Assembly: GCA_029856365.1 (NCBI GenBank)
Contig: JAHQWW010000087.1
Coordinates: 1-15,319 of the forward strand
Length of the DNA stretch: 15,319 bases
Source of the DNA: Candidatus Hodarchaeota archaeon
Lineage (GTDB): Archaea; Asgardarchaeota; Heimdallarchaeia; Hodarchaeales; Hodarchaeaceae
Direction of reading: 5' to 3'
In this document: piece by piece, positions 168 through 15,051 of the stretch
Numbering within the stretch: position 1 is the first letter of the stretch
Layout of the letters: every line of letters begins with the position of its first letter
Translations under genes and position numbers: made by a program
The notes under the pieces: generated by a model
What the model saw: the letters and a program-made list of their open reading frames with translations, nothing else
The model's database searches: none
What the model was told of the DNA's origin: nothing

Positions 168-515
168 CATAACTTATGCCTACTAGTTAATTGGAAAATA
201 ATCAAAAAGAAAACTACCAAAGGCAATGAGGATTCAATTAAGGAAAAAAATAAAGAATTAGATGATATTAATTTTGTAGAATACATAGAAAGATGGCAAG
301 AGTCTCACAACATAAAGGTTGTTTATAAATTCATATTCCTCGTTATTCCCTTCGTTTTAAGCGGTCTTTTTTTTATCTATATGCTGACAGAAATGGGTAC
401 AATGACTCTTGAAGATACAATCGCTAATATTGTAGCCTTGTTCCCTAATTGCCATAGAAAGATGCATATTTTAAACAAACAAAAAGATGTATCAAGATTG
501 CAATCATTACACTAA
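168..515 (+). pseudogene. Chimeric remnant: membrane-protein-like fragment fused in frame to the C-terminus of an HNH endonuclease
   Basis: Stop-free frame 168-515 with first ATG at 381. It has a hydrophobic stretch (FIFLVIPFVLSGLFFIY), then EDTIANIVALFPNCHRKMHIL (from 411), which matches the HNH/McrA-type tail 'DT..N.VALCPNCHRxxH' with the first Cys replaced by Phe. Confidence 0.6.
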
Positions 516-521
516 TGATAA

Positions 522-560
522 TAATGTTGTCAATGGCTGGTTTAGATTCGAAAAGTATAT
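522..560 (+). repeat. Cassette-boundary repeat copy A (putative recombination site)
   Basis: TAATGTTGTC AAT GGCTGG TTTAG ATTCGAAAA GT ATAT. Matches the 5136 copy at 34/39 positions. Starts 6 bp after the HNH-remnant stop. Confidence 0.85.
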
Positions 561-774
561 ACCACGGTACGAGAAGATAATACTAAAGAATTGTGGAAAA
601 GAATCAGGGAAATAATGGCGCTTTCATAATCCTGTTTACAAAACTATATAGTTTCTGATGACTATCTTAATCCTGTGATTTATTCTGATTTACTCTCAAC
701 CTTGAGGTATTTTGTTAAGGTTCCCCCTGAAGATAACATTAATTAAAGAAAAAATGACGTACTTATGGAGGTAG

Positions 775-1407
775 AATCCATCGAAAATCGAACCGTTTGA
801 AAAATATACAGACCAATATGAAGATTGGTTTGAGACACATAAATTTGTTTATAAATCAGAGCTAAGGGCTATAAAAAATCAATTGCCTAAGAATGGAGAA
901 GGGATTGAAATCGGTGTGGGAAGCGGTAGATTTGCAGCGCCTTTAGGTATTAAATTTGGAATTGATCCATCTATAAAAATGAGACAAATAGCCCAAAGTA
1001 GGGGTATTGAAGTGATTAACGGTGTTGCAGAGAATTTACCTTTTAGGGACAATACTTTTACCTTTACACTGATGGTAACGACAATTTGCTTTTTAAATGA
1101 TATAAAAACCGCTTTTCAAGAAGCGCGCAGGGTGTTAAAGCCAAGAGGATGCTTAATAATAGGATTTATCGACAAAACTAGCACTATTGGAGAACTATAT
1201 CAAAAACATAAACAGGAGAATGTGTTCTATAATGTAGCAACGTTTTACTCAGTTGAGGATGTTGTTCTTCTCCTGAAAAAAATTGGTTTTAAGAACTTTC
1301 AGTACATTCAAACAATTTTTAATAATTTAAGCGAAATAAAAGATATTGAACCTATTAAAGAGGGTCACGGGGAAGGTTCATTTGTTGTAGTTAAAACATT
1401 CAAATAA
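775..1407 (+). CDS. Class I SAM-dependent methyltransferase (Methyltransf_11-like), canonical start codon apparently lost
   Basis: Motif I IEIGVGSGRF, AENLPF and VLKPRG are present. The frame is open from 775 and encodes a family-typical N-terminus (SKIEPFEKYTDQYEDWFETHKFVYKSEL) upstream of the track's TTG at 883. GGAGGT SD at 767-772. Confidence 0.9.
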   Translation, partial: NPSKIEPFEKYTDQYEDWFETHKFVYKSELRAIKNQLPKNGEGIEIGVGSGRFAAPLGIKFGIDPSIKMRQIAQSRGIEVINGVAENLPFRDNTFTFTLMVTTICFLNDIKTAFQEARRVLKPRGCLIIGFIDKTSTIGELYQKHKQENVFYNVATFYSVEDVVLLLKKIGFKNFQYIQTIFNNLSEIKDIEPIKEGHGEGSFVVVKTFK

Positions 1408-1530
1408 TGAATCCGAGAGCTATTTTTTCATTAAATGTTTTGTAGAATTAGGAGACTTGAATGAACAGCCAAATACTTGATTAATAGTTTTTTTGCCTCA
1501 TGTGTTTTGAAAAATATAGTTTTCAGGGAC

Positions 1531-1569
1531 AAACTTCGTTTATGGCTGGCTTTAATTGGAAAAGTATAT
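1531..1569 (+). repeat. Cassette-boundary repeat copy B
   Basis: AAACTTCGTT TAT GGCTGG CTTTA ATTGGAAAA GT ATAT. Ungapped 29/39 match to copy A. Lies downstream of the methyltransferase. Confidence 0.8.
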
Positions 1570-1750
1570 GCTTGATGTTTCTTCCCCGTATTTTAAGATA
1601 GGTTAGCAATTTTTTTACAGGATTGAATGAGTAGAATCATTTATGTAGATCTGGGATTTCATTTGTACGAATTCTTTTCCTAGCTATTTAAACTCCAGAT
1701 AGTAGATGAAAATTGACGCTAAAAGATTATAAAATTTTCAAGTGGTGTCG

Positions 1751-1775
1751 TTAAACCAGCCTAGGACAGACATCT
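1751..1775 (-). repeat. Cassette-boundary repeat copy G (minus strand)
   Basis: Reverse complement reads AGATGTCTGTC CTA GGCTGG TTTAA. Lies about 20 bp 3' of the minus-strand toxin gene, on the same strand as that gene. Confidence 0.7.
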
Positions 1776-1796
1776 GAATGTTTTAATGTGATAAAA

Positions 1797-2177
1797 TCAC
1801 AAACCAAATCGATAAATTTTACCAGACTGAATAATACTACATAAAAACTTGATATTATCTGAAGAGCTCCCCTTAAAAGGACTTTCAATAGCCTTTTCTT
1901 GATGTCGTGGATGAGTGTGATGTGGTTTAGAAGGTACTTCCCACTTATTATCAAAATTGTCGAATCTGATACGATCTAGCTTCTGAGAGGAGAACATCAC
2001 TATATAGGAATATTGTCCATAATTATTATACCGAATGAAGACTGTAGTTCCGCTTTTTAATTTAATTCTTAATTTACTAGTATCTTCGTCTAGATCAATC
2101 TCAGAAATAAAACCTCGTAATTCTTTGAGAATAATATCATATGCTTTAAGAATTAGATCCTCAGATAACAAGATCAT
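1797..2177 (-). CDS. TumE/DUF6516-like toxin of a type II TA pair
   Basis: YSY...IRFDN...PHHTH motif typical of DUF6516/TumE. ATG directly abuts the upstream gene's TGA (TGA-ATG). Confidence 0.7.
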   Translation of the reverse strand: MILLSEDLILKAYDIILKELRGFISEIDLDEDTSKLRIKLKSGTTVFIRYNNYGQYSYIVMFSSQKLDRIRFDNFDNKWEVPSKPHHTHPRHQEKAIESPFKGSSSDNIKFLCSIIQSGKIYRFGL

Positions 2178-2420
2178 TCACTGTAAGCCAAGCAACAGTT
2201 TTTCTATTTCATTTCGTTTATCACGTAAATTCTGTAGATCTATGGCATCGTCTTCAGCTTCAGGTAAGGTTCCAGTCTTTGCGCCATTGATAAATTCGTC
2301 AATTGAATTGGTATTCCATTTTTTGAGGATTTTTTCTATTTTCTCAGTTAGAACACGGAGTTTTGTTTCAATTAAGTCTCGAGCTGTTTCAGAATCTAAA
2401 GTAATGGACATAATGCTCAT
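2178..2420 (-). CDS. Small helical putative antitoxin (TumA-like position); start probably 2420 or 2411
   Basis: ~80-aa acidic/helical ORF directly upstream of, and abutting, the DUF6516-like gene. AGGA precedes the ATGs at 2420 and 2411. Confidence 0.65.
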   Translation of the reverse strand: MSIMSITLDSETARDLIETKLRVLTEKIEKILKKWNTNSIDEFINGAKTGTLPEAEDDAIDLQNLRDKRNEIEKLLLGLQ

Positions 2421-2512
2421 TCCTACAATAATAATATTCATTTTAAATGTTATCAATCTTTAGCTGTTTAACCCATTCTTCTATAAAAACACTTGTCCAA
2501 AAAGTGATAATA

Positions 2513-2690
2513 TTGGTTAAAAAACTAAAGCCATGGTTAGAATTGCACTTTATATTGCCTGAAGAAGACCCTGAAGAGCTAGAATTACATGAGTTTAAAC
2601 AAATAAGGAAAAAAATGGAAGAGGGAGAACGAACTCGTTAGAAAAAGGAATGAGTGATCAATTACTCAATTTTCTTACACTTTCTATTCT
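2513..2690 (+). pseudogene. Possible decayed antitoxin plus the first few codons of a RelE-like toxin
   Basis: From TTG 2513: VKKLKPWLELHFILPEEDPEELELHEFKQIRKKMEEGERTR, resembling archaeal antitoxin C-termini (EEEP.E.E...IR..M..GE). It is followed by ATGAGT and, in a shifted frame, NYSIFLH, like RelE N-termini, and then breaks off. Confidence 0.35.
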
Positions 2691-2715
2691 TTTGTGTTCC
2701 GTAAGATATCCTCTC

Positions 2716-2748
2716 TAAAGTCGTAAAAGGCTGGATTAACACTAAAAG
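2716..2748 (+). repeat. Cassette-boundary repeat copy E
   Basis: TAAAGTCGTA AAA GGCTGG ATTAA CACTAAAAG. Left arm and core are in the same register as copies A and C. Confidence 0.7.
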
Positions 2749-3257
2749 GCGAGAAAGAGATGAAAAGCAATCTAGACTTCAATAATTAAAGGTTAGTAGG
2801 TTTTGTTTCAAATAATATCCTAATGGTTCGAAAGACGAAAAAAGAAAAAATAGCAACTTTTGCACTAGCCTAATCTGTATAGACAAAACCACCAAATCTT
2901 CCTTCCTTCTTTTAAACTTTTAAGATTGGATCCAAGTTAATCTGAAGTTACTCATCAGTCGAGTTTTGTATTATTTAAAGTTCATAAGTTCAAATGTTTA
3001 AATATTCCTTTGTTTTAATAAAAATGTCCTTTAATAGTTCAATTTATAATATATTCATAAATTTCGTTAATAATGTTTATATAAAGCACGGTAAGACTTC
3101 CCAATGGCCAATCAACCGTTTTAATCTGAAGAAGCGTTGAAAATGTTTCTGTTAAAGACAGTAAATGAATATCAGATCAACTTAAACCTCTTCAATATCC
3201 TAAAAGGCTTGAGAAATTAACATGGATGTTGATTATAATTAAATGAAGTGATATAGA

Positions 3258-4202
3258 ATGACCCCTAAACAAAAAGAATTTGATGAATTTAATGAATCGA
3301 ATGATGAAATGCTACAATATTATCGTAATCAAAGTTCAATTACAGATCCAAGTATTTACTCAGATATTTATGAGGATCTACCCACAACTATTCCTGAACT
3401 GTGTAAAATTATTCAGAATGTTATAATTCATATTTTTTGGTTACAAGCATATGGAATGCGTCCTTCTGATTTAAAAGATCAAAAAAGAAACATCAATAAG
3501 GAATTGAATCAAAGATCTGTACATGAAAAATTATCAACGATATTTTCCCTCAAGGATGAGCCACTAACTGAAAGAAGGAAGCCAAATACCCGTGTTCTTG
3601 GTAATTGTCGGGATTATTCGGTACTTCTTGCATCCATTCTTCGATATAATGGAATTTCTGCAAGGGTACGGAGTGGGGTGTCGCGATACTTTTTTCCTCC
3701 TCCCAAAGATTTCCACGAGGATCACTTTATTTGTGAATATTGGCATCCTGACGACCATCGTTGGGTTATGGTTGATTCTCAAATTGATGAAATTCAGAAT
3801 AAAACAGTGAAAGTGAAAATCAATTTACACGATATCCCATCTGATCAATTTTTAAATGCGGGACATGCGTGGATTAAATTTAGAGAAGGAAAAGTAAAAC
3901 CAAAAAAAATTGGTTTATCTGGTAGTAAATGGTTAGGAGAACGCTTTTTAATAGATAAATTAATTCAGGATTTCGCCTGTTTAAATAAGGTAGAAGTTCT
4001 TGCCTGGGAAACGTGGGGTATTTGTGATCTGCAAAGAAAACTGAAACCAAACGAGTACGAAGAATTAGATAAGCTTGCTAGCAAAATCTCTTGTTTATCA
4101 GATACAAAAGTATTTGTAGATTTGAAAAATACGTTTAAACAAAATAATTTGTTTAAAATGCCAGAAAACTATAAACCGAGATTTGAAAAATTCTTTCCTT
4201 GA
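3258..4202 (+). CDS. Transglutaminase-like (Cys-His-Asp triad) domain protein
   Basis: GNCRDYS (Cys), GISARVRSG, DHFICEYW (His), WVMVDSQ (Asp). Confidence 0.9.
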   Translation: MTPKQKEFDEFNESNDEMLQYYRNQSSITDPSIYSDIYEDLPTTIPELCKIIQNVIIHIFWLQAYGMRPSDLKDQKRNINKELNQRSVHEKLSTIFSLKDEPLTERRKPNTRVLGNCRDYSVLLASILRYNGISARVRSGVSRYFFPPPKDFHEDHFICEYWHPDDHRWVMVDSQIDEIQNKTVKVKINLHDIPSDQFLNAGHAWIKFREGKVKPKKIGLSGSKWLGERFLIDKLIQDFACLNKVEVLAWETWGICDLQRKLKPNEYEELDKLASKISCLSDTKVFVDLKNTFKQNNLFKMPENYKPRFEKFFP

Positions 4203-4244
4203 TTATAAAAGCGAAATCTTGTCCTAAAAAATTAGTCAAAAAAC

Positions 4245-4281
4245 AAACGCCGTCTATGTCTGGTTAAATGGAAAAGATTAT
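4245..4281 (+). repeat. Cassette-boundary repeat copy F
   Basis: AAACGCCGTC TAT GTCTGG TTA AATGGAAAA GA TTAT, with a right arm 2 nt shorter. Starts 42 bp after the transglutaminase stop. Confidence 0.7.
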
Positions 4282-4363
4282 TCTCCTCAAAATGTAATGC
4301 AAAAGGATGATTTCAGGATATAAATTTCTGGAGACAAAGACAGAACAGCTTTCGGGAATAAAA

Positions 4364-4933
4364 ATGATAACAATTCCTACTCTCAAGACGACCCGTTTGA
4401 TTATTAGACCTTTGAATGAGAAAGACATAGACTTTCTTTTCAATCATTATAATCAAGAAGAAATTTCACGCTATACATTAATCTCCTTTAATTCTATTGA
4501 TGAGGTTAAAGCATTTTTAGGTCAATACACAGCAAAAAGTGATATGAGGAAATTCAAAGAAGGAATTGAATTGAGATCAACCCAGCAACTTATTGGAACA
4601 GTGACTTTCTTGAATTGGAGTAAGAAGGATCGTTGTGCTGAGATTGGTTATGACCTATCAAAAGAATATTGGGGAAAAGGGTTCATGTATGAAGCGCTCG
4701 AAGTTTTCATAAGATTTGGTTTTGAAGTAATGAATCTAAATCGAATTGAAGCCACTACGAATGTTAGAAATGAAAGATCAAGAAAAGTATTAACTCGATT
4801 AGGTTTTATACAAGAAGGGATCTTACGCCAAAAATATCGTTTTAGGGGAAAATTTTCTGATGAAATTATCTTTTCTATATTGAGAGAAGAATGGGAGACG
4901 AGAGGCATTCAAGGAATGCAGGATAAATCATAA
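4364..4933 (+). CDS. GNAT N-acetyltransferase, RimJ/RimL family (ORF track start 4307; 4364 more likely)
   Basis: PTLKTTRLIIRPL N-terminus, AEIGYDLSKEYWGKGFM acetyl-CoA motif, NERSRKVLTRLGFIQEG. Confidence 0.92.
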   Translation: MITIPTLKTTRLIIRPLNEKDIDFLFNHYNQEEISRYTLISFNSIDEVKAFLGQYTAKSDMRKFKEGIELRSTQQLIGTVTFLNWSKKDRCAEIGYDLSKEYWGKGFMYEALEVFIRFGFEVMNLNRIEATTNVRNERSRKVLTRLGFIQEGILRQKYRFRGKFSDEIIFSILREEWETRGIQGMQDKS

Positions 4934-5135
4934 TATTATTTTCAAACTTTTTCTATATAGAGAGAGAGAACGAGCCTTTTTTTCAACTTTAGGAACTTTT
5001 TTAAAGTGAAAAAAGTAAACTAGAAGTATTTCGATAGGGATTTGGGTAAAAAATATCAGGGGAGCTAAGCAAATGATCTCTGAATCTGATAACCTGAATT
5101 AATATTGTCAAAATTGAACATTTTTACTTATATTC

Positions 5136-5174
5136 TAATGTTGTCTAAGGCTGGTTTAGATAGGAAAAATATAT
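5136..5174 (+). repeat. Cassette-boundary repeat copy C
   Basis: TAATGTTGTC TAA GGCTGG TTTAG ATAGGAAAA AT ATAT. Matches copy A at 34/39 positions. Confidence 0.85.
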
Positions 5175-5274
5175 CCTTTGGTATTTATGATACCATATGG
5201 CAACACGGGGATTTGCCATAGTAATACAATTAATAAATCTATTATTGCTTTTATTATGGTAGGAGAAATAAAGC

Positions 5275-5979
5275 ATGGATGATAAGATCCATAAAGAAAT
5301 GATGTGCTACTATCATGAGAGAGCAGAGGAATACGATGAACTATATAAAGGAATAATTGGAAGGACACGTCACGTTACCATTAACCCGCAAGTCTATCGA
5401 CAGGATATAGCTAAAACTTCTGAAATGGTTGCAAGGTTTGGCACTGGATCGTTAATTGATATCGGGTGTGGATCTGGTTTTTGGTTTCTGTATTATGCAC
5501 GAAATTGTAGTAGGATAACAATGCTCGATCAATCGAAAAAAATGCTTCAAGAAAGCTCAAAAAAAGTTGAACAATTAGGATTAGAAGAGTCGGTCAATTT
5601 TATTCAAGGAGATTTTTTCAGAATACCTCTAGGACTCTCAATATTTGATTGTGCTTTGATTGGGTTTCTTTTAAGCCATTTTACCGTAAAACAAGAAGAA
5701 ACATTCTTTTTAAAACTCCAGAGAATTCTAAAGCCAAATGGTAAACTGCTATTTATCGATAGTGCTTGGAATAAGGAACGACAAAAGCATAGAAAGAAAG
5801 AAGGAGTCCAAGAGAGAGTTTTGAACGATGGTCGAGTATTTCAAATATATAAACGATATTTTGACAGATTGGATGTTGAGAAAATGTTTCAGAGATATAA
5901 TTTTGAAATAAAATCTCTTTATATTGGAAAAGCAATGATTTCAATCATCGCAGAGTATTTTCATCAAAAAATTGCATAA
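5275..5979 (+). CDS. Class I SAM-dependent methyltransferase
   Basis: YY.ERAEEYD N-terminus, LIDIGCGSGFW motif I, LDQS..ML, FIQGD, ILKPNGKLLFID. Confidence 0.92.
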   Translation: MDDKIHKEMMCYYHERAEEYDELYKGIIGRTRHVTINPQVYRQDIAKTSEMVARFGTGSLIDIGCGSGFWFLYYARNCSRITMLDQSKKMLQESSKKVEQLGLEESVNFIQGDFFRIPLGLSIFDCALIGFLLSHFTVKQEETFFLKLQRILKPNGKLLFIDSAWNKERQKHRKKEGVQERVLNDGRVFQIYKRYFDRLDVEKMFQRYNFEIKSLYIGKAMISIIAEYFHQKIA

Positions 5980-6072
5980 AAGATGTATATTGAGATTCCT
6001 TCATATCTATTATATTGTCTCATAGAGGATTGCATGAGAAGCAATGTTGGTCATAATACTGGAGCAAATCTG

Positions 6073-6091
6073 ATATGTCGTCGATGGCTGG
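6073..6091 (+). repeat. Cassette-boundary repeat copy D (left half and core only)
   Basis: ATATGTCGTC GAT GGCTGG, then unrelated sequence. Lies ~93 bp after the methyltransferase stop. Confidence 0.7.
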
Positions 6092-6179
6092 AAAGGGGAA
6101 TCTTTTGGTAGGTCAACTTTTAACAAGAATTTATAAAGAAGTGACGCATTCCTATCCATTGGACTCCTGTGTGAACAGA

Positions 6180-6491
6180 ATGGTAAGTCAAAACCAATTA
6201 ATTCTAAAGAATGAAATAATGGACAAACTCTTAAAATATATGTCAAAAATTAAAGAGTTTGGGGTTGAGAAAATTGGAGTATTTGGTTCATTGCTTAAAG
6301 GGGAAACAACTGGAGATGTAGATATTCTTATATCATTTAAAGAAAATGAAGAATCTTTTCATAATCTAATAGATTTGTATTATTTACTTAAGGATACAAT
6401 AAATGCACAAATTGACATTGTCACGACGAATGTTCTCAGTCCTTATATCGGTCCCTATATTCTTCGGGAAGTGGAATATATTAAAGCCTAA
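6180..6491 (+). CDS. Minimal nucleotidyltransferase (MntA-type), no adjacent HEPN partner; track start 6075 falls inside repeat D
   Basis: KIGVFGSLLKGE..GDVDILI, DIVT...LSPYIGPYILREV. Starting at ATG 6180 gives ~103 aa, the usual family size. Confidence 0.85.
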   Translation: MVSQNQLILKNEIMDKLLKYMSKIKEFGVEKIGVFGSLLKGETTGDVDILISFKENEESFHNLIDLYYLLKDTINAQIDIVTTNVLSPYIGPYILREVEYIKA

Positions 6492-6520
6492 GACTAAAAG
6501 CTGATCTATGAGGATTAAAA

Positions 6521-8199: not shown

Positions 8200-9858
8200 T
8201 TGATTCATTTTAATAAACAAAGAGGAATTAGGATGTTTGTCCAGAATAATACGACTAAGAGAACGTTTAAATTTAATAAGGCCAATACTCGAATAATAAT
8301 AGCTTTTTTTCACATCAATATTCTGTTTTGGGGTTTTTTTATTATGCTAAATTCATTTTTTTTAGTGAGCAATTTGTCACCAGTCTCGGCAAGCTTATTT
8401 CCGAGACAAGAGGTGGGTTTTATTGGTGAAGCGGAACAGGATAAAGCAGGTATGTCTCTTTCAGATGTAGGAGATGTAAATAATGATGACTATGATGATT
8501 TCATAATAGGAGCTTCCTCAAATGATGAAGGCGGGGTTGAAGCAGGGCAGACATATCTCATATTAGGAAGGCCTGGCAACAAATGGAAGGAAGAATACAG
8601 TCTCTCAGAATCAAATGCTTCTTTTATTGGGGAAAATGGTCTGGACTTTTCTGGATGGAGCGTTTCAGGAGCGGGAGACGTAAATAGCGATGGTTACAAT
8701 GACTTCGTCATAGGAGCACCAGGATTTTATATTGGAGAAGCACAATTAGGGCAAGTATATCTTATTCTTGGTCGACCAGGTGATAAATGGAGCATGGATA
8801 CTACACTTTCACTGGCAAATGCTTCTTTCATAGGTGAGCATGAGGATCTCATGGTGGGGAGCCATGTTGCTGGAGTAGGAGATGTAAATAATGATGGGTA
8901 TGATGATTTTGCTATTGGAGGTGGAAATACTACTTACGTTATTTTTGGAAAAGAAACAAATGAATGGACAATGGATGTTTCACTTATAAATGCAGATCGA
9001 TTCATTATTGCAGGATCAAATGTTTTCGGAGTGGGAGATGTGAATAATGATAATTATCACGATCTTGCTATTGGTATACCTAGTGATGATGATGGGGGTG
9101 TTGATGCTGGGCAAACGTTTCTTTTTTTCGGCAGAGCAACCAGTGAATGGGATACCTGGATATTCAGAAATGAAGCAGATGCCTCATTTATAGGTGAGGT
9201 AGCAGATGACTATTCCGGTCTCTCAGTGTCTCGTTTAGGCGATGTAAATAGTGATGATTATGACGATCTCCTAATTGGAGCACCTTGGAATGATGAAGGA
9301 GGGGCGATTGCAGGTCAAACATATCTAATACTTGGTCGTGCAACCAATAAGTGGGAATTTGGAGCTTCTCTATTAGACGCAAATGCATCATTTATTGGGG
9401 AAGCTGCGTCAGACGAATCTGGTTGGGGAATTTCAGGAGTTGATGATGTGAATAATGATGGGCTTTCAGATTTCGTTATAGGGGCATTTGGAAATGAGGA
9501 TAGTGCTCATTACGCAGGAAAAACATATCTCCTCCTTGGCAAACCTACTGGACAATGGATCATGGACACTTCCCTCTCAACAGCTGATCTCTCAATGGTC
9601 GGAGAAGCCTTTGGAGATCATTTAGGTATAAAAGTCTCAGGTGCCAAGGATGTAGATAATGATGGATTTGATGAGTTTCTTGTAGTAGCCTATTTCAACG
9701 ATCAGGGTGGTGTGGATGCAGGAAAGGTATATTTGATACTTCATCCATTTTATGAGTGCACAACCATAATTCAAACAACTCCTATTTCATTTACGCCAAT
9801 TCTAGTAGTACTATGTCTGGTTGTCCAAATATCGTATTTTAAAAAGAGAAAAAGCTGA
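8200..9858 (+). CDS. Membrane-anchored FG-GAP / integrin-alpha-like seven-repeat beta-propeller surface protein
   Basis: Seven DVxxDxxxDxxxG-type repeats with GAP and GQTYLILG motifs, an N-terminal hydrophobic segment, and a C-terminal Thr-rich linker + TM helix + KKRKS tail. Confidence 0.92.
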   Translation: MIHFNKQRGIRMFVQNNTTKRTFKFNKANTRIIIAFFHINILFWGFFIMLNSFFLVSNLSPVSASLFPRQEVGFIGEAEQDKAGMSLSDVGDVNNDDYDDFIIGASSNDEGGVEAGQTYLILGRPGNKWKEEYSLSESNASFIGENGLDFSGWSVSGAGDVNSDGYNDFVIGAPGFYIGEAQLGQVYLILGRPGDKWSMDTTLSLANASFIGEHEDLMVGSHVAGVGDVNNDGYDDFAIGGGNTTYVIFGKETNEWTMDVSLINADRFIIAGSNVFGVGDVNNDNYHDLAIGIPSDDDGGVDAGQTFLFFGRATSEWDTWIFRNEADASFIGEVADDYSGLSVSRLGDVNSDDYDDLLIGAPWNDEGGAIAGQTYLILGRATNKWEFGASLLDANASFIGEAASDESGWGISGVDDVNNDGLSDFVIGAFGNEDSAHYAGKTYLLLGKPTGQWIMDTSLSTADLSMVGEAFGDHLGIKVSGAKDVDNDGFDEFLVVAYFNDQGGVDAGKVYLILHPFYECTTIIQTTPISFTPILVVLCLVVQISYFKKRKS

Positions 9859-13285: not shown

Positions 13286-14689
13286 TTGAAAGAAGATTTA
13301 GGTAAAAATGTATTACTTCTACATGCGCCAATCGCTCAATACACATTTGGGAAAAAATGGAGAGCGACTAAAGGCTTATCTCCCCCCCTTGGATTACTCT
13401 ATCTTGGCTCTCCACTACTAAAAGTAGGTTATAACGTAAAATTTGTGGATTTAAATGTTGATAAATTATCAAGGAAGGAATTTTTGAAAATTATTGAAGC
13501 CCAAGACTTCATCTTAATAACCTGCTATACTCTTACAATAAATAATGTGAAAAAAATTATCCAAGATATCAAGGAGGTGAATAACAAAGGAGTCATTCTG
13601 TGTGGCGGGCCTCACTGTAATATTACTCAAGAGTATATTGAAGGTTCTTTCATTACCTGTATTGGAGAAGTGGAAGGATATATTGTACAAATCCTCCATT
13701 TAATTGAGACAAAAAAACCTTTAGAAGTTATTCCTGGATTAATTTATAAGAAAGATGGGGAATTGGTTAAAAATACGGGTGTCATGAAAATAAATAATTT
13801 GGATTCTAGTATATTCCCTGCTTGGGAGTTATTAGACAAGAAAAAATACGGATACATTGGTAATGCTCAACTAGATCTCGCGTGGATCATGAGTACACGG
13901 GGGTGTCCTTTTAATTGTTATTTTTGTGCTCGTATGTTATATAGTAAATACCGTGAAAGAAGTGTCGATAATGTAGTTGCGGAGTTAAAATCTCTAGTAA
14001 AACAAGGTTACAAGTATATTGCTTTTGGTGATGACAATTTCTTACTTAATAAAAATAGGGTTCATGAGATTATGGAGAGAATTATCTTAGAAAAGATAAA
14101 TATCAAGATGGCTGTTCAAGGAAGAGTTGACTCGGCTGATTTTAATATGTTTCAGAAAATGCGAAAAGCAGGGGTCATTGCAATATTTTTTGGAATTGAA
14201 AGCGCTAATCAGGATGTACTTGACTTTTATAACAAGAAAACGACAGTAGAGCAAGGAATCGAAGCAATAAAAACAGCTAATCAAGCAGGTTTAATAACAA
14301 TAGGATTTTTCATAATAGGAGCTCCGTTTGAAACAGATAAACACATTAAACAAAATTTGGAATATTTCAATAGCGTACCTCTAGATTTAATTAGTTGCTA
14401 CGATTTAACATATGTGGTAGGGACAAAGCTATGGAAAAATGCTGTTAAAAAAGGAATAATTGAAAAATCAGAACTTTTTGTCCGTGCTGATAAAAAAACA
14501 TCCAATTATTCATCAGAAGAAATATCAGAAATTAAGAATGATTTAATTAAACATTTTTATAAAAATCCCCACAGATTACTAAGGGTTCTATACAAGGCTT
14601 TACGCCTTGGTGAACTAGGTCTTATTTACAAAGGACTTCTGAATGTTGGCGCAATATTATCGAAAATGCGTGGATTTACTACCGTTTGA
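13286..14689 (+). CDS. B12-binding radical SAM protein (class B methyltransferase-like)
   Basis: PPLGLLYL, GGPH, GEVE in the B12-binding region; STRGCPFNCYFC (CxxxCxxC); DDNF; GIES; FIIGAPFET. GAGGGG SD before the TTG. Confidence 0.95.
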   Translation: MKEDLGKNVLLLHAPIAQYTFGKKWRATKGLSPPLGLLYLGSPLLKVGYNVKFVDLNVDKLSRKEFLKIIEAQDFILITCYTLTINNVKKIIQDIKEVNNKGVILCGGPHCNITQEYIEGSFITCIGEVEGYIVQILHLIETKKPLEVIPGLIYKKDGELVKNTGVMKINNLDSSIFPAWELLDKKKYGYIGNAQLDLAWIMSTRGCPFNCYFCARMLYSKYRERSVDNVVAELKSLVKQGYKYIAFGDDNFLLNKNRVHEIMERIILEKINIKMAVQGRVDSADFNMFQKMRKAGVIAIFFGIESANQDVLDFYNKKTTVEQGIEAIKTANQAGLITIGFFIIGAPFETDKHIKQNLEYFNSVPLDLISCYDLTYVVGTKLWKNAVKKGIIEKSELFVRADKKTSNYSSEEISEIKNDLIKHFYKNPHRLLRVLYKALRLGELGLIYKGLLNVGAILSKMRGFTTV

Positions 14690-14738: not shown

Positions 14739-15026
14739 ATGAAAAAGAGAACTATGCCAGTTGTGATAGCGTTGGTGACTGTGATCATCTTGTTACCATT
14801 ATTCTCGGTTTTGTCTCCTAGACAGCAAGAGCCAAGAATTCATGGGATAATGGATATTTATGGAACTTTTAAAGAGTTGACCACGGAGTTCGGAATCTAG
14901 ATAACACATATTGGAATAGCAGAAATGCCAACATATGAAGAGTTACAGTCTCAGGCCGAGAAATCTGAAAATGAGAAACTATTGGTGATCAATAGCTCGC
15001 TAGTGATGGTCAAAGAAAAGACATAA
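14739..15026 (+). pseudogene. Small signal-peptide-bearing ORF interrupted by an in-frame TAG
   Basis: GGTGG SD; MKKRTMPVVIALVTVIILLPLFSVLSP...EFGI, TAG at 14898-14900, then 41 more sense codons to TAA 15024-15026. Confidence 0.5.
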
Positions 15027-15051
15027 GCTGGTAATGATTGGAAAATGATAT
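15013..15051 (+). repeat. Cassette-boundary repeat copy I (core and right half)
   Basis: ...GAC ATA AGCTGG TAATG ATTGGAAAA TG ATAT. Same GCTGG-N5-ATTGGAAAA-N2-ATAT spacing as copy B. Overlaps the stop of the 14739 ORF. Confidence 0.6.

Follow-up and report, generated by a model that had tools for sequence, protein, structure and literature searches.

We consider it fairly probable that the stretch at positions 514-541 consists of the upstream half and the crossover core of a joint, peculiar to one genus, by which gene cassettes are strung into arrays pointing in one direction, and that it is not a dif-like site with two 11-base arms around a 6-base spacer, as had originally been proposed. In kind, the repeat to which it belongs is a cassette joint of a non-integron type. 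The window analyzed here is the whole 15.3-kb contig (C109; 15,319 nucleotides) of the archaeal bin G000, which comprises 4.24 Mb in 204 contigs, is 84% complete, and is confirmed as archaeal by its RpoN. On our reading, the gene for a site-specific recombinase would lie elsewhere in the genome, the enzyme would recognize mainly the upstream half and the core, strand exchange would take place within or at the edges of the hexamer GGCTGG, and packets of genes would thereby be inserted, excised, and reshuffled, much like the cassettes of integrons.

The occurrence of this repeat is far above chance. When the sequence was read again, all six copies listed in the original prediction were spelled as given there. 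Divided as was then proposed into the end of a left arm, a spacer, and a right arm, they read ..ATAATAA / TGTTGT / CAATGGCTGG (core at 535), ..GACAAA / CTTCGT / TTATGGCTGG (1544), ..CTCTAA / AGTCGT / AAAAGGCTGG (2729), ..AACAAA / CGCCGT / CTATGTCTGG (4258), ..TTCTAA / TGTTGT / CTAAGGCTGG (5149), and ..TGATA / TGTCGT / CGATGGCTGG (6086); in the same division, the whole of 514-541 reads AATGATAATAA / TGTTGT / CAATGGCTGGT. Further copies in the window are a reversed one (core 1761-1756) and weak ones near 3206 and 15026. The pattern GTYWAWGKCTGG has seven matches in the window against 0.55 expected, a number reached by none of 200 shuffles. With position 0 set at the first G of GGCTGG, a weight matrix covering -12 to +5 finds 21 matches of at least 18 bits in the 4.24 Mb of the genome, against two in the reversed control. 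A longer pattern, based on the commonest (class A) form described below, has matches in 19 of 21 genomes belonging to this genus of Asgard-type archaea, up to 17 per genome (0-1 per genome for the reversed pattern); in the other genera searched, it gave just four matches, each with two mismatches and none convincing.

To describe the joint, we aligned 60 to 100 distinct copies from G000 and from stretches of its relatives. In the logo of 60 copies, the information extends from -12 to about +39, with none further upstream, and the joint spans 26-52 bases. Its upstream half (-12 to -1), AAY-N-TCGT-M-AAA, is inherited with the gene packet to its left. The core (0 to +5), GGCTGG, is nearly invariant, the least conserved position having A in 2, G in 56, and T in 2 of the 60 copies; as it differs from its own reverse complement, it is able to set a direction. 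The part from +6 onward is inherited with the packet to its right and comes in classes, which diverge from that position. In class A (59 of 100 copies), the core is followed by TTTAGAT, three variable bases (WRS), AAAAGTATATAC, four bases of any kind, and a second box, GTATATAC, and positions -1 to +12 are invariant within the class. Class B (18 copies) continues with ATTARCAC and class C (a few copies) with AAAGGGG, and the remaining 21 are decayed copies together with some chance matches. The downstream element GGAAAA..ATAT, earlier suggested to be an accessory binding box, is indeed present in the commonest class, as RS-AAAAGTATATAC. No hairpin common to the site was found across DNA folds of 17 copies on both strands, and the two GTATATAC boxes can pair in just 16 of the 59 class-A copies. 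It should be added that the three bases WRS (+13 to +15; 548-550 and 5162-5164 in the window) differ between copies that are nearly identical over the next 30-45 bases, with four differences in nine positions versus about three in 110 in the bases that follow. This variation tracks neither flank, and may reflect a local process at the joint.

The window illustrates how such joints are placed. The stretch 514-541 (plus strand) comprises an unconserved part (514-522), the upstream half (523-534, AATGTTGTCAAT), the core (535-540), and the first downstream base. It opens a class-A joint at 523-574 (plus strand; 24.8 bits; nhmmer E 2.9e-13), in which the core is followed by TTTAGAT, TCG, AAAAGTATATAC, and a decayed second box. 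This joint starts 10 bases past the stop of a decayed HNH gene, a nuclease-type remnant (..LFPNCHRKMHIL..) at 200-513, and a strain contig (run X6) diverges from the window exactly at this stop, at 513. A gene for a SAM methyltransferase (883-1407; this and the following gene assignments are from Pfam) separates it from the second class-A joint at 1532-1583 (plus strand; core 1544-1549; 22.7 bits), which has one additional base after the core, and the homology of the methyltransferase packet with G007 stops at the left margin of this joint, position 1533. After a segment without genes (1584-1745) comes the reversed copy at 1746-1773 (minus strand; core 1761-1756; 15.6 bits), located at the 3' end of a minus-strand toxin-antitoxin packet with a TumE-type toxin pair (1797-2456, minus strand). 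A class-B joint at 2717-2742 (plus strand; core 2729-2734, then ATTAACAC; 25.0 bits) forms the right edge of the same unit. The unit from 1746 to 2742 carries inverted joints at its two ends, whose downstream halves point away from it. It is kept as one unit in a contig of a relative (G007:C63; 89% identity), with different neighbors there, and it resembles a small transposon or an inverted cassette.

Further to the right, an uncertain, weak and possibly decayed joint lies at 3194-3211 (plus strand; AATATCCTAAAAGGCTTG; 12.0 bits, in a weight-matrix scan for which the reversed control of the whole window gave one match of at least 9 bits), ahead of a transglutaminase-like gene (3258-4202). A decayed class-A joint at 4246-4290 (plus strand; core GTCTGG at 4258-4263; 18.4 bits) separates the latter from a GNAT acetyltransferase gene (4307-4933), and the homology of the GNAT packet begins at 4303 with G007 and at 4336 with G017. 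The next class-A joint occupies 5137-5188 (plus strand; core 5149-5154; 23.6 bits); homology with G011:C47 (92%) begins at 5137, spans the gene for a second methyltransferase (5275-5979), and extends to 6092. The last joint of the array, of class C, is at 6074-6091 (plus strand; core 6086-6091, then AAAGGGG; 22.0 bits), and its core overlaps the start of a nucleotidyltransferase frame (6075-6491), the gene that follows the array. Finally, an outlying, weak, and decayed copy (AGCTGG, TAATGAT, TGG, AAAATGATAT; repeat family D4; below 9 bits) is found at 15015-15051 (plus strand). The packets between the joints, from 575 to 6085, are unrelated small accessory genes, with the HNH remnant ahead of the first joint.

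Several other features of the window may be recorded here. A separate short repeat at 4196-4244, consisting of the end of the transglutaminase-like gene and about 40 further bases, recurs at 86-92% identity in G007:C63, G011:C47, G009, and G019:C42, and a strain contig diverges at 4236. At 5196-5218, about 45 bases past the joint at 5149, there is a perfect hairpin, ATGGCAA-N9-TTGCCAT, which is also present in the G011:C47 copy and, with one stem mismatch (ATGACAA), in a copy in G000:C99. The gene at 8200-9858 encodes an FG-GAP protein of 552 amino acids built from seven DNA repeats of 204 bases (one of 156 bases), and its GC content is 0.42 versus 0.32 around it. The B12-binding radical-SAM gene at 13286-14689 has its nearest relatives outside the genus in bacteria (Caldisericota, Atribacterota, and Aminicenantes; about 30-34% identity), and it was probably acquired from bacteria.

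Across the genus, the joints form arrays of constant orientation, in which the packets are reshuffled. All 19 copies over 54 kb of G007:C39 point the same way, as do seven of the eight in the window, and the single-contig genome G009 carries several clusters of joints. In one G009 cluster, three of four joints follow the stop codon of a plus-strand gene at a distance of 22-50 bases; encoded ahead of them are a protein with a glycoside hydrolase family 5 C-terminal domain, a helicase, and an APH-family phosphotransferase. The closest relatives of the window's packets are scattered over five contigs of G007, G011, and G017. In addition to the matches in G007:C63 and G011:C47 already mentioned, window positions 753-1533 correspond to G007:C39:264670-265450 (97% identity), 4303-4924 to G007:C39:254138-254756 (93%), and 6086-6493 to G007:C39:259853-260269 (82%). 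When 84 copies were compared pairwise, seven pairs had the left flank alone in common, eight the right flank alone, and none both. In G013:C97, five relatives of one packet stop at +7 to +13 of the next joint, and other homology blocks begin at -12, -9, and +5; it should be borne in mind that most of these comparisons use draft metagenome bins and that about six breakpoints are of high resolution. In the assembled contigs of four DNA runs, neither joints that skip a cassette nor excised circles were seen; these contigs had loose ends only, and the loose ends at sites are mostly cross-matches of other copies.

Where does the exchange fall? From the alignments of relatives, the switch of homology is placed between -1 and +6, that is, within or at the edges of GGCTGG. 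The best-resolved case is the joint at 6086: on the left side, G011 is alike through the core as far as 6092, past which it has ATTAGCAC in place of the window's AAAGGGG; on the right side, G007 is alike from position 0 (6086), with a different upstream half. A mangrove-strain contig matches the window over 1498-1761 and then diverges, at the -1/0 boundary of the reversed copy, and G019 and G005 share 97% identity on the left up to the end of the core, diverging from +7. The states of positions -4 to -1, including the unusual CCAT found in two copies with the same left packet, track the left packet, and they differ in five of eight pairs with a common right packet. Because these four bases are inherited with the upstream genes, the exchange falls outside the spacer that was first proposed; the switch point at GGCTGG is ten bases to the right of it. 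The broader idea of a directional recombination joint is supported, with a conserved, asymmetric 6-base core, copies that run one way, and, in the commonest class, a further conserved box past the core, but the center is GGCTGG and not the proposed spacer. The core and its flanks are without clear two-fold symmetry (3.6-4.6 of 11 positions, versus 2.9-3.2 for shuffled arms), so the usual arrangement of two recombinase monomers on inverted arms is not evident.

The same breakpoints could arise in another way. The repeat might be a conserved expression signal, either a promoter in which RS-AAAAGTATATAC serves as BRE and TATA box with an operator upstream, or a signal for 3' ends, and the shuffling would then be a by-product of homologous recombination. 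We regard this as rather unlikely. The longest invariant block, -1 to +12 of class A, is where exchange between repeats by homologous recombination would be expected to resolve as well; AAAAGTATATAC has what we take to be a resemblance to the archaeal BRE and TATA box; and the copies at 4258, 5149, and 15026 sit 17-90 bases before a gene start. However, the next same-strand frame begins anywhere from 18 to more than 5000 bases beyond the box (median 271), with no peak, and the copy at 1544 and the reversed copy at 1761 face each other over 200 bases without genes. Classes B and C do not have the box, yet they are joints, and because classes A, B, and C diverge from +6, the identity shared among the joints is limited to the 18-base half, a short length for homologous recombination. 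The AAAAGTATATAC box may act as a promoter, but the spacing does not support this, and such a role leaves classes B and C unexplained.

Returning to the cassette joint and its exchange at GGCTGG, the dif-like reading can be weighed on the same alignments. This reading holds that the copies are 11-6-11 sites with a left arm ending in wAA, a 6-base spacer ending in GT, and a right arm ywAwGGCTGG, and that XerA cuts at the borders of the spacer. The six copies in the window do parse in this way, the supposed spacer always ending in GT, and G000 encodes a clear XerA homologue, which matches that of P. abyssi (PDB 4A8E) at 211 bits (E 2.6e-61). In general, the arms of dif sites are conserved and the spacer is freer. 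With the left arm set at -21 to -11, the spacer at -10 to -5, and the right arm at -4 to +6, a logo of 77 copies gives 2.6 bits for the 11 positions of the left arm, 7.3 for the spacer, and 17.5 for the right arm; in other words, the spacer is better conserved than the left arm. Nearly all of the left arm's information lies in its last two A's, and these are all that is kept of it in the 77 copies. The complementarity of the two arms is 2.3-2.7 of 11, versus 2.8-2.9 when shuffled, and the P. abyssi dif reaches 9 of 11. The known dif has a 6-bp spacer between two semi-conserved, inverted arms of 11 bp each, and that of P. abyssi is ATTGGATATAA-TCGGCC-TTATATCTAAA (PMC2958812). The original prediction was to be given up if a larger logo showed no fixed register of arms and spacer; the letters do keep a fixed register, but it is not one of arm, spacer, and arm, which in substance is the outcome that speaks against it. 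Moreover, the joint does not have the one site per chromosome of a dif, as each genome carries about 20 or more copies in arrays, and with -4 to -1 following the left packet, the exchange at 0 to +6 is misplaced for such a site. We consequently give this reading almost no weight, and the 11-6-11 geometry is close to refuted.

A separate, single-copy site with 11-6-11 geometry does exist in this genome, at G000:C116:12768-12795 (L071:1501-1528), and reads TATTCATCTAA-TCAATG-TTATATCTAAA. In its right arm it agrees letter for letter with the P. abyssi dif, and it occurs once in each of 5 of 22 genomes, where the site and about 50 bases to its right are kept and both flanks differ. We propose it as a candidate for the host dif, possibly with elements integrated beside it. 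Compared with this candidate, as the original prediction had suggested doing with the host's dif, the cassette joint proves to be different, apart from the heptamer TTTAGAT. The joint has in common with the Xer/dif systems (bacterial XerCD-dif and archaeal XerA-dif, Cortez et al. 2010, PMC2958812) a short site, an asymmetric 6-base center of exchange, and a XerA homologue in every genome checked, and the class-A TTTAGAT matches the P. abyssi dif arm in its outer part. It differs from them in having neither 11-base inverted arms nor the inner ATAA/TTAT, and in its roughly 20 or more copies versus one site at the terminus.

Which enzyme would act at the joint is a further question. The G007:C39 array has genes for MttB and a Ras-family GTPase at its left edge but no recombinase gene, and the G009 cluster has none either. 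Of the tyrosine, serine, Y1, and Y2 enzymes searched for in five site-bearing genomes, XerA-type tyrosine recombinases alone turned up in every one, and in G000 (where the homologue is at C92, L001:1426-2340) and G013 no other tyrosine recombinase was detected; serine recombinases are sporadic, no match to a Y1 transposase was obtained in the site-bearing genomes searched, and a search for Y2 (IS91-type) enzymes gave no match but is uninformative, as its control matched nowhere either. XerA is thus kept as a candidate by elimination alone, and two points weaken its case: it is universal in the Archaea, so that its presence proves nothing, and the assemblies are 84-99% complete, so that another enzyme may have escaped assembly or may belong to an unfamiliar family.

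If XerA is the enzyme, the register would have to be shifted, so that GGCTGG forms the 6-base overlap of a tyrosine recombinase site with short, imperfect arms, CGTMAAA and WTTARMW. The bracketing of the exchange to exactly the 6-base core favors this, as do the distribution of recombinases just described and the class-A TTTAGAT, which equals the outer seven bases of the P. abyssi dif arm TTTAGATATAA; class B also has a weak dyad, GT.AA-N8-TT.AC (4.6 of 11, versus 2.9 when shuffled, sd 1.4). On the other side, the dyad is weak and in class A does not rise above chance, Xer arms have an inner ATAA/TTAT where this site has WRSA, and a downstream half that depends on the class is odd for an arm to which a recombinase binds. 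We judge this version unlikely. Slightly more speculative still is the proposal that GGCTGG is the overlap of a new type of archaeal cassette site, which XerA would exchange as a second job, using one strong half and interchangeable second halves.

In functional terms, the array of joints is like an integron cassette array, and the comparison can be made with sedentary chromosomal integrons and CALINs. Both are one-way arrays of small, unrelated accessory genes (methyltransferases, GNAT acetyltransferases, and toxin-antitoxin genes); the site is mostly just 3' of the gene, and most of it moves with the upstream cassette; the exchange is near the 3' edge of the site; and the order varies among relatives, with the copies within a genome being alike. 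Unlike attC, however, the joint has no RYYYAAC/GTTRRRY boxes in its consensus and no conserved single-strand hairpin. A search of G000 (84% complete) for an integron integrase with TIGR02249 had the XerA gene as its sole match, with 93 and 79 bits versus a cut-off of 265, and its alignment does not include profile positions 183-236. These positions are presumably the integron-specific insert. The published archaeal integrons have canonical attC folding and an IntI with an extra domain (Ghaly et al. 2022, PMC9668308). The arrays described here differ from integrons also in that no enzyme gene stands at their edge, the site is confined to one genus, and many cassettes begin with a common TATA-like box.

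Mobile elements of other kinds invite comparison as well. In pdif modules of Acinetobacter plasmids, pdif sites alternate in inverted orientation, whereas the joints run one way except in the 1746-2742 unit, which shares with these modules a single toxin-antitoxin unit between inverted copies. Tandem islands at the 3' ends of tRNA, tmRNA, or other RNA genes likewise show one-way repeats between accessory blocks with no integrase in view, but here no RNA or protein gene was found that has the joint as its tail, and the shared identity is just about 18 bases. Scans of the window for Rfam families, tRNA/tmRNA, and tandem repeats were blank.

It is also conceivable that the copies are leftover ends of transposable elements, either terminal repeats or target sites, for which the toxin unit between inverted copies at 1746-2742, mobile as a unit, might be cited. 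An insertion sequence does lie exactly inside the class-A box, behind GTATATAC-N4, at G000:C204, at G000:C11, and twice in G013:C97. It is 1.66 kb long, with two frames (the second having a weak DDE_Tnp_1 match) and with ends GTGAGATGTGCGCGAAAT... and ...CGAACACCTCTCAC; its copies are at G000:C204:120751-122383, G000:C11:5930-end, and L040 (G013:C97) 740-2355, with a solo end at about 12868. The GTATATAC box plus four bases abuts seven of the eight matches to its ends in G000, as well as the left end of the G013 copy, and the several copies in class-A boxes are always in one orientation. The four bases on its two sides are not identical, which excludes a plain target duplication. Against an origin of the joints from such ends, the exchange point has the insertion sequence's own ends (GTGAGATG...) about 32 bases to its right, almost every joint is solo and points in the same direction, without an inverted partner, no transposase is encoded in the packets, and no Y1 match was obtained in the site-bearing genomes searched. 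We find this origin very improbable. The repeated use of one exact class-A point in one orientation recalls insertion sequences of the IS1111-attC type, but the second frame is weakly of the DDE_Tnp_1 (IS4/IS5-type) family and not IS110/IS1111. The insertion sequence rides on the joint and did not give rise to it.

Three more candidates were tried and rejected. The repeat is not a coding piece (frame V-K-G-W-F-R-L-Q-K-Y-I), as no long frame enters any copy and, by our own count on the 60-copy logo, the variable positions have no third-codon bias. Nor is it the tail of a gene that heads the array, because there is no such gene at the left edge of G007:C39 or in the G009 cluster. For a sigma-54-type promoter, the spacing, judged by eye only, is wrong.

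The literature searched contains no paper linking the Hodarchaeales with gene cassettes or recombination sites. The hunt for the enzyme of these cassette joints should not presuppose a dif-type site, and the relevant center of a substrate is GGCTGG with the 12 bases upstream, not the TGTTGT spacer. Should the joint prove to be a genuine site of site-specific recombination, a genus close to the archaeal relatives of eukaryotes would run an integron-like capture of genes, which uses a different site and no integron integrase. This would widen the known routes by which the Archaea gather and reshuffle accessory and foreign genes.
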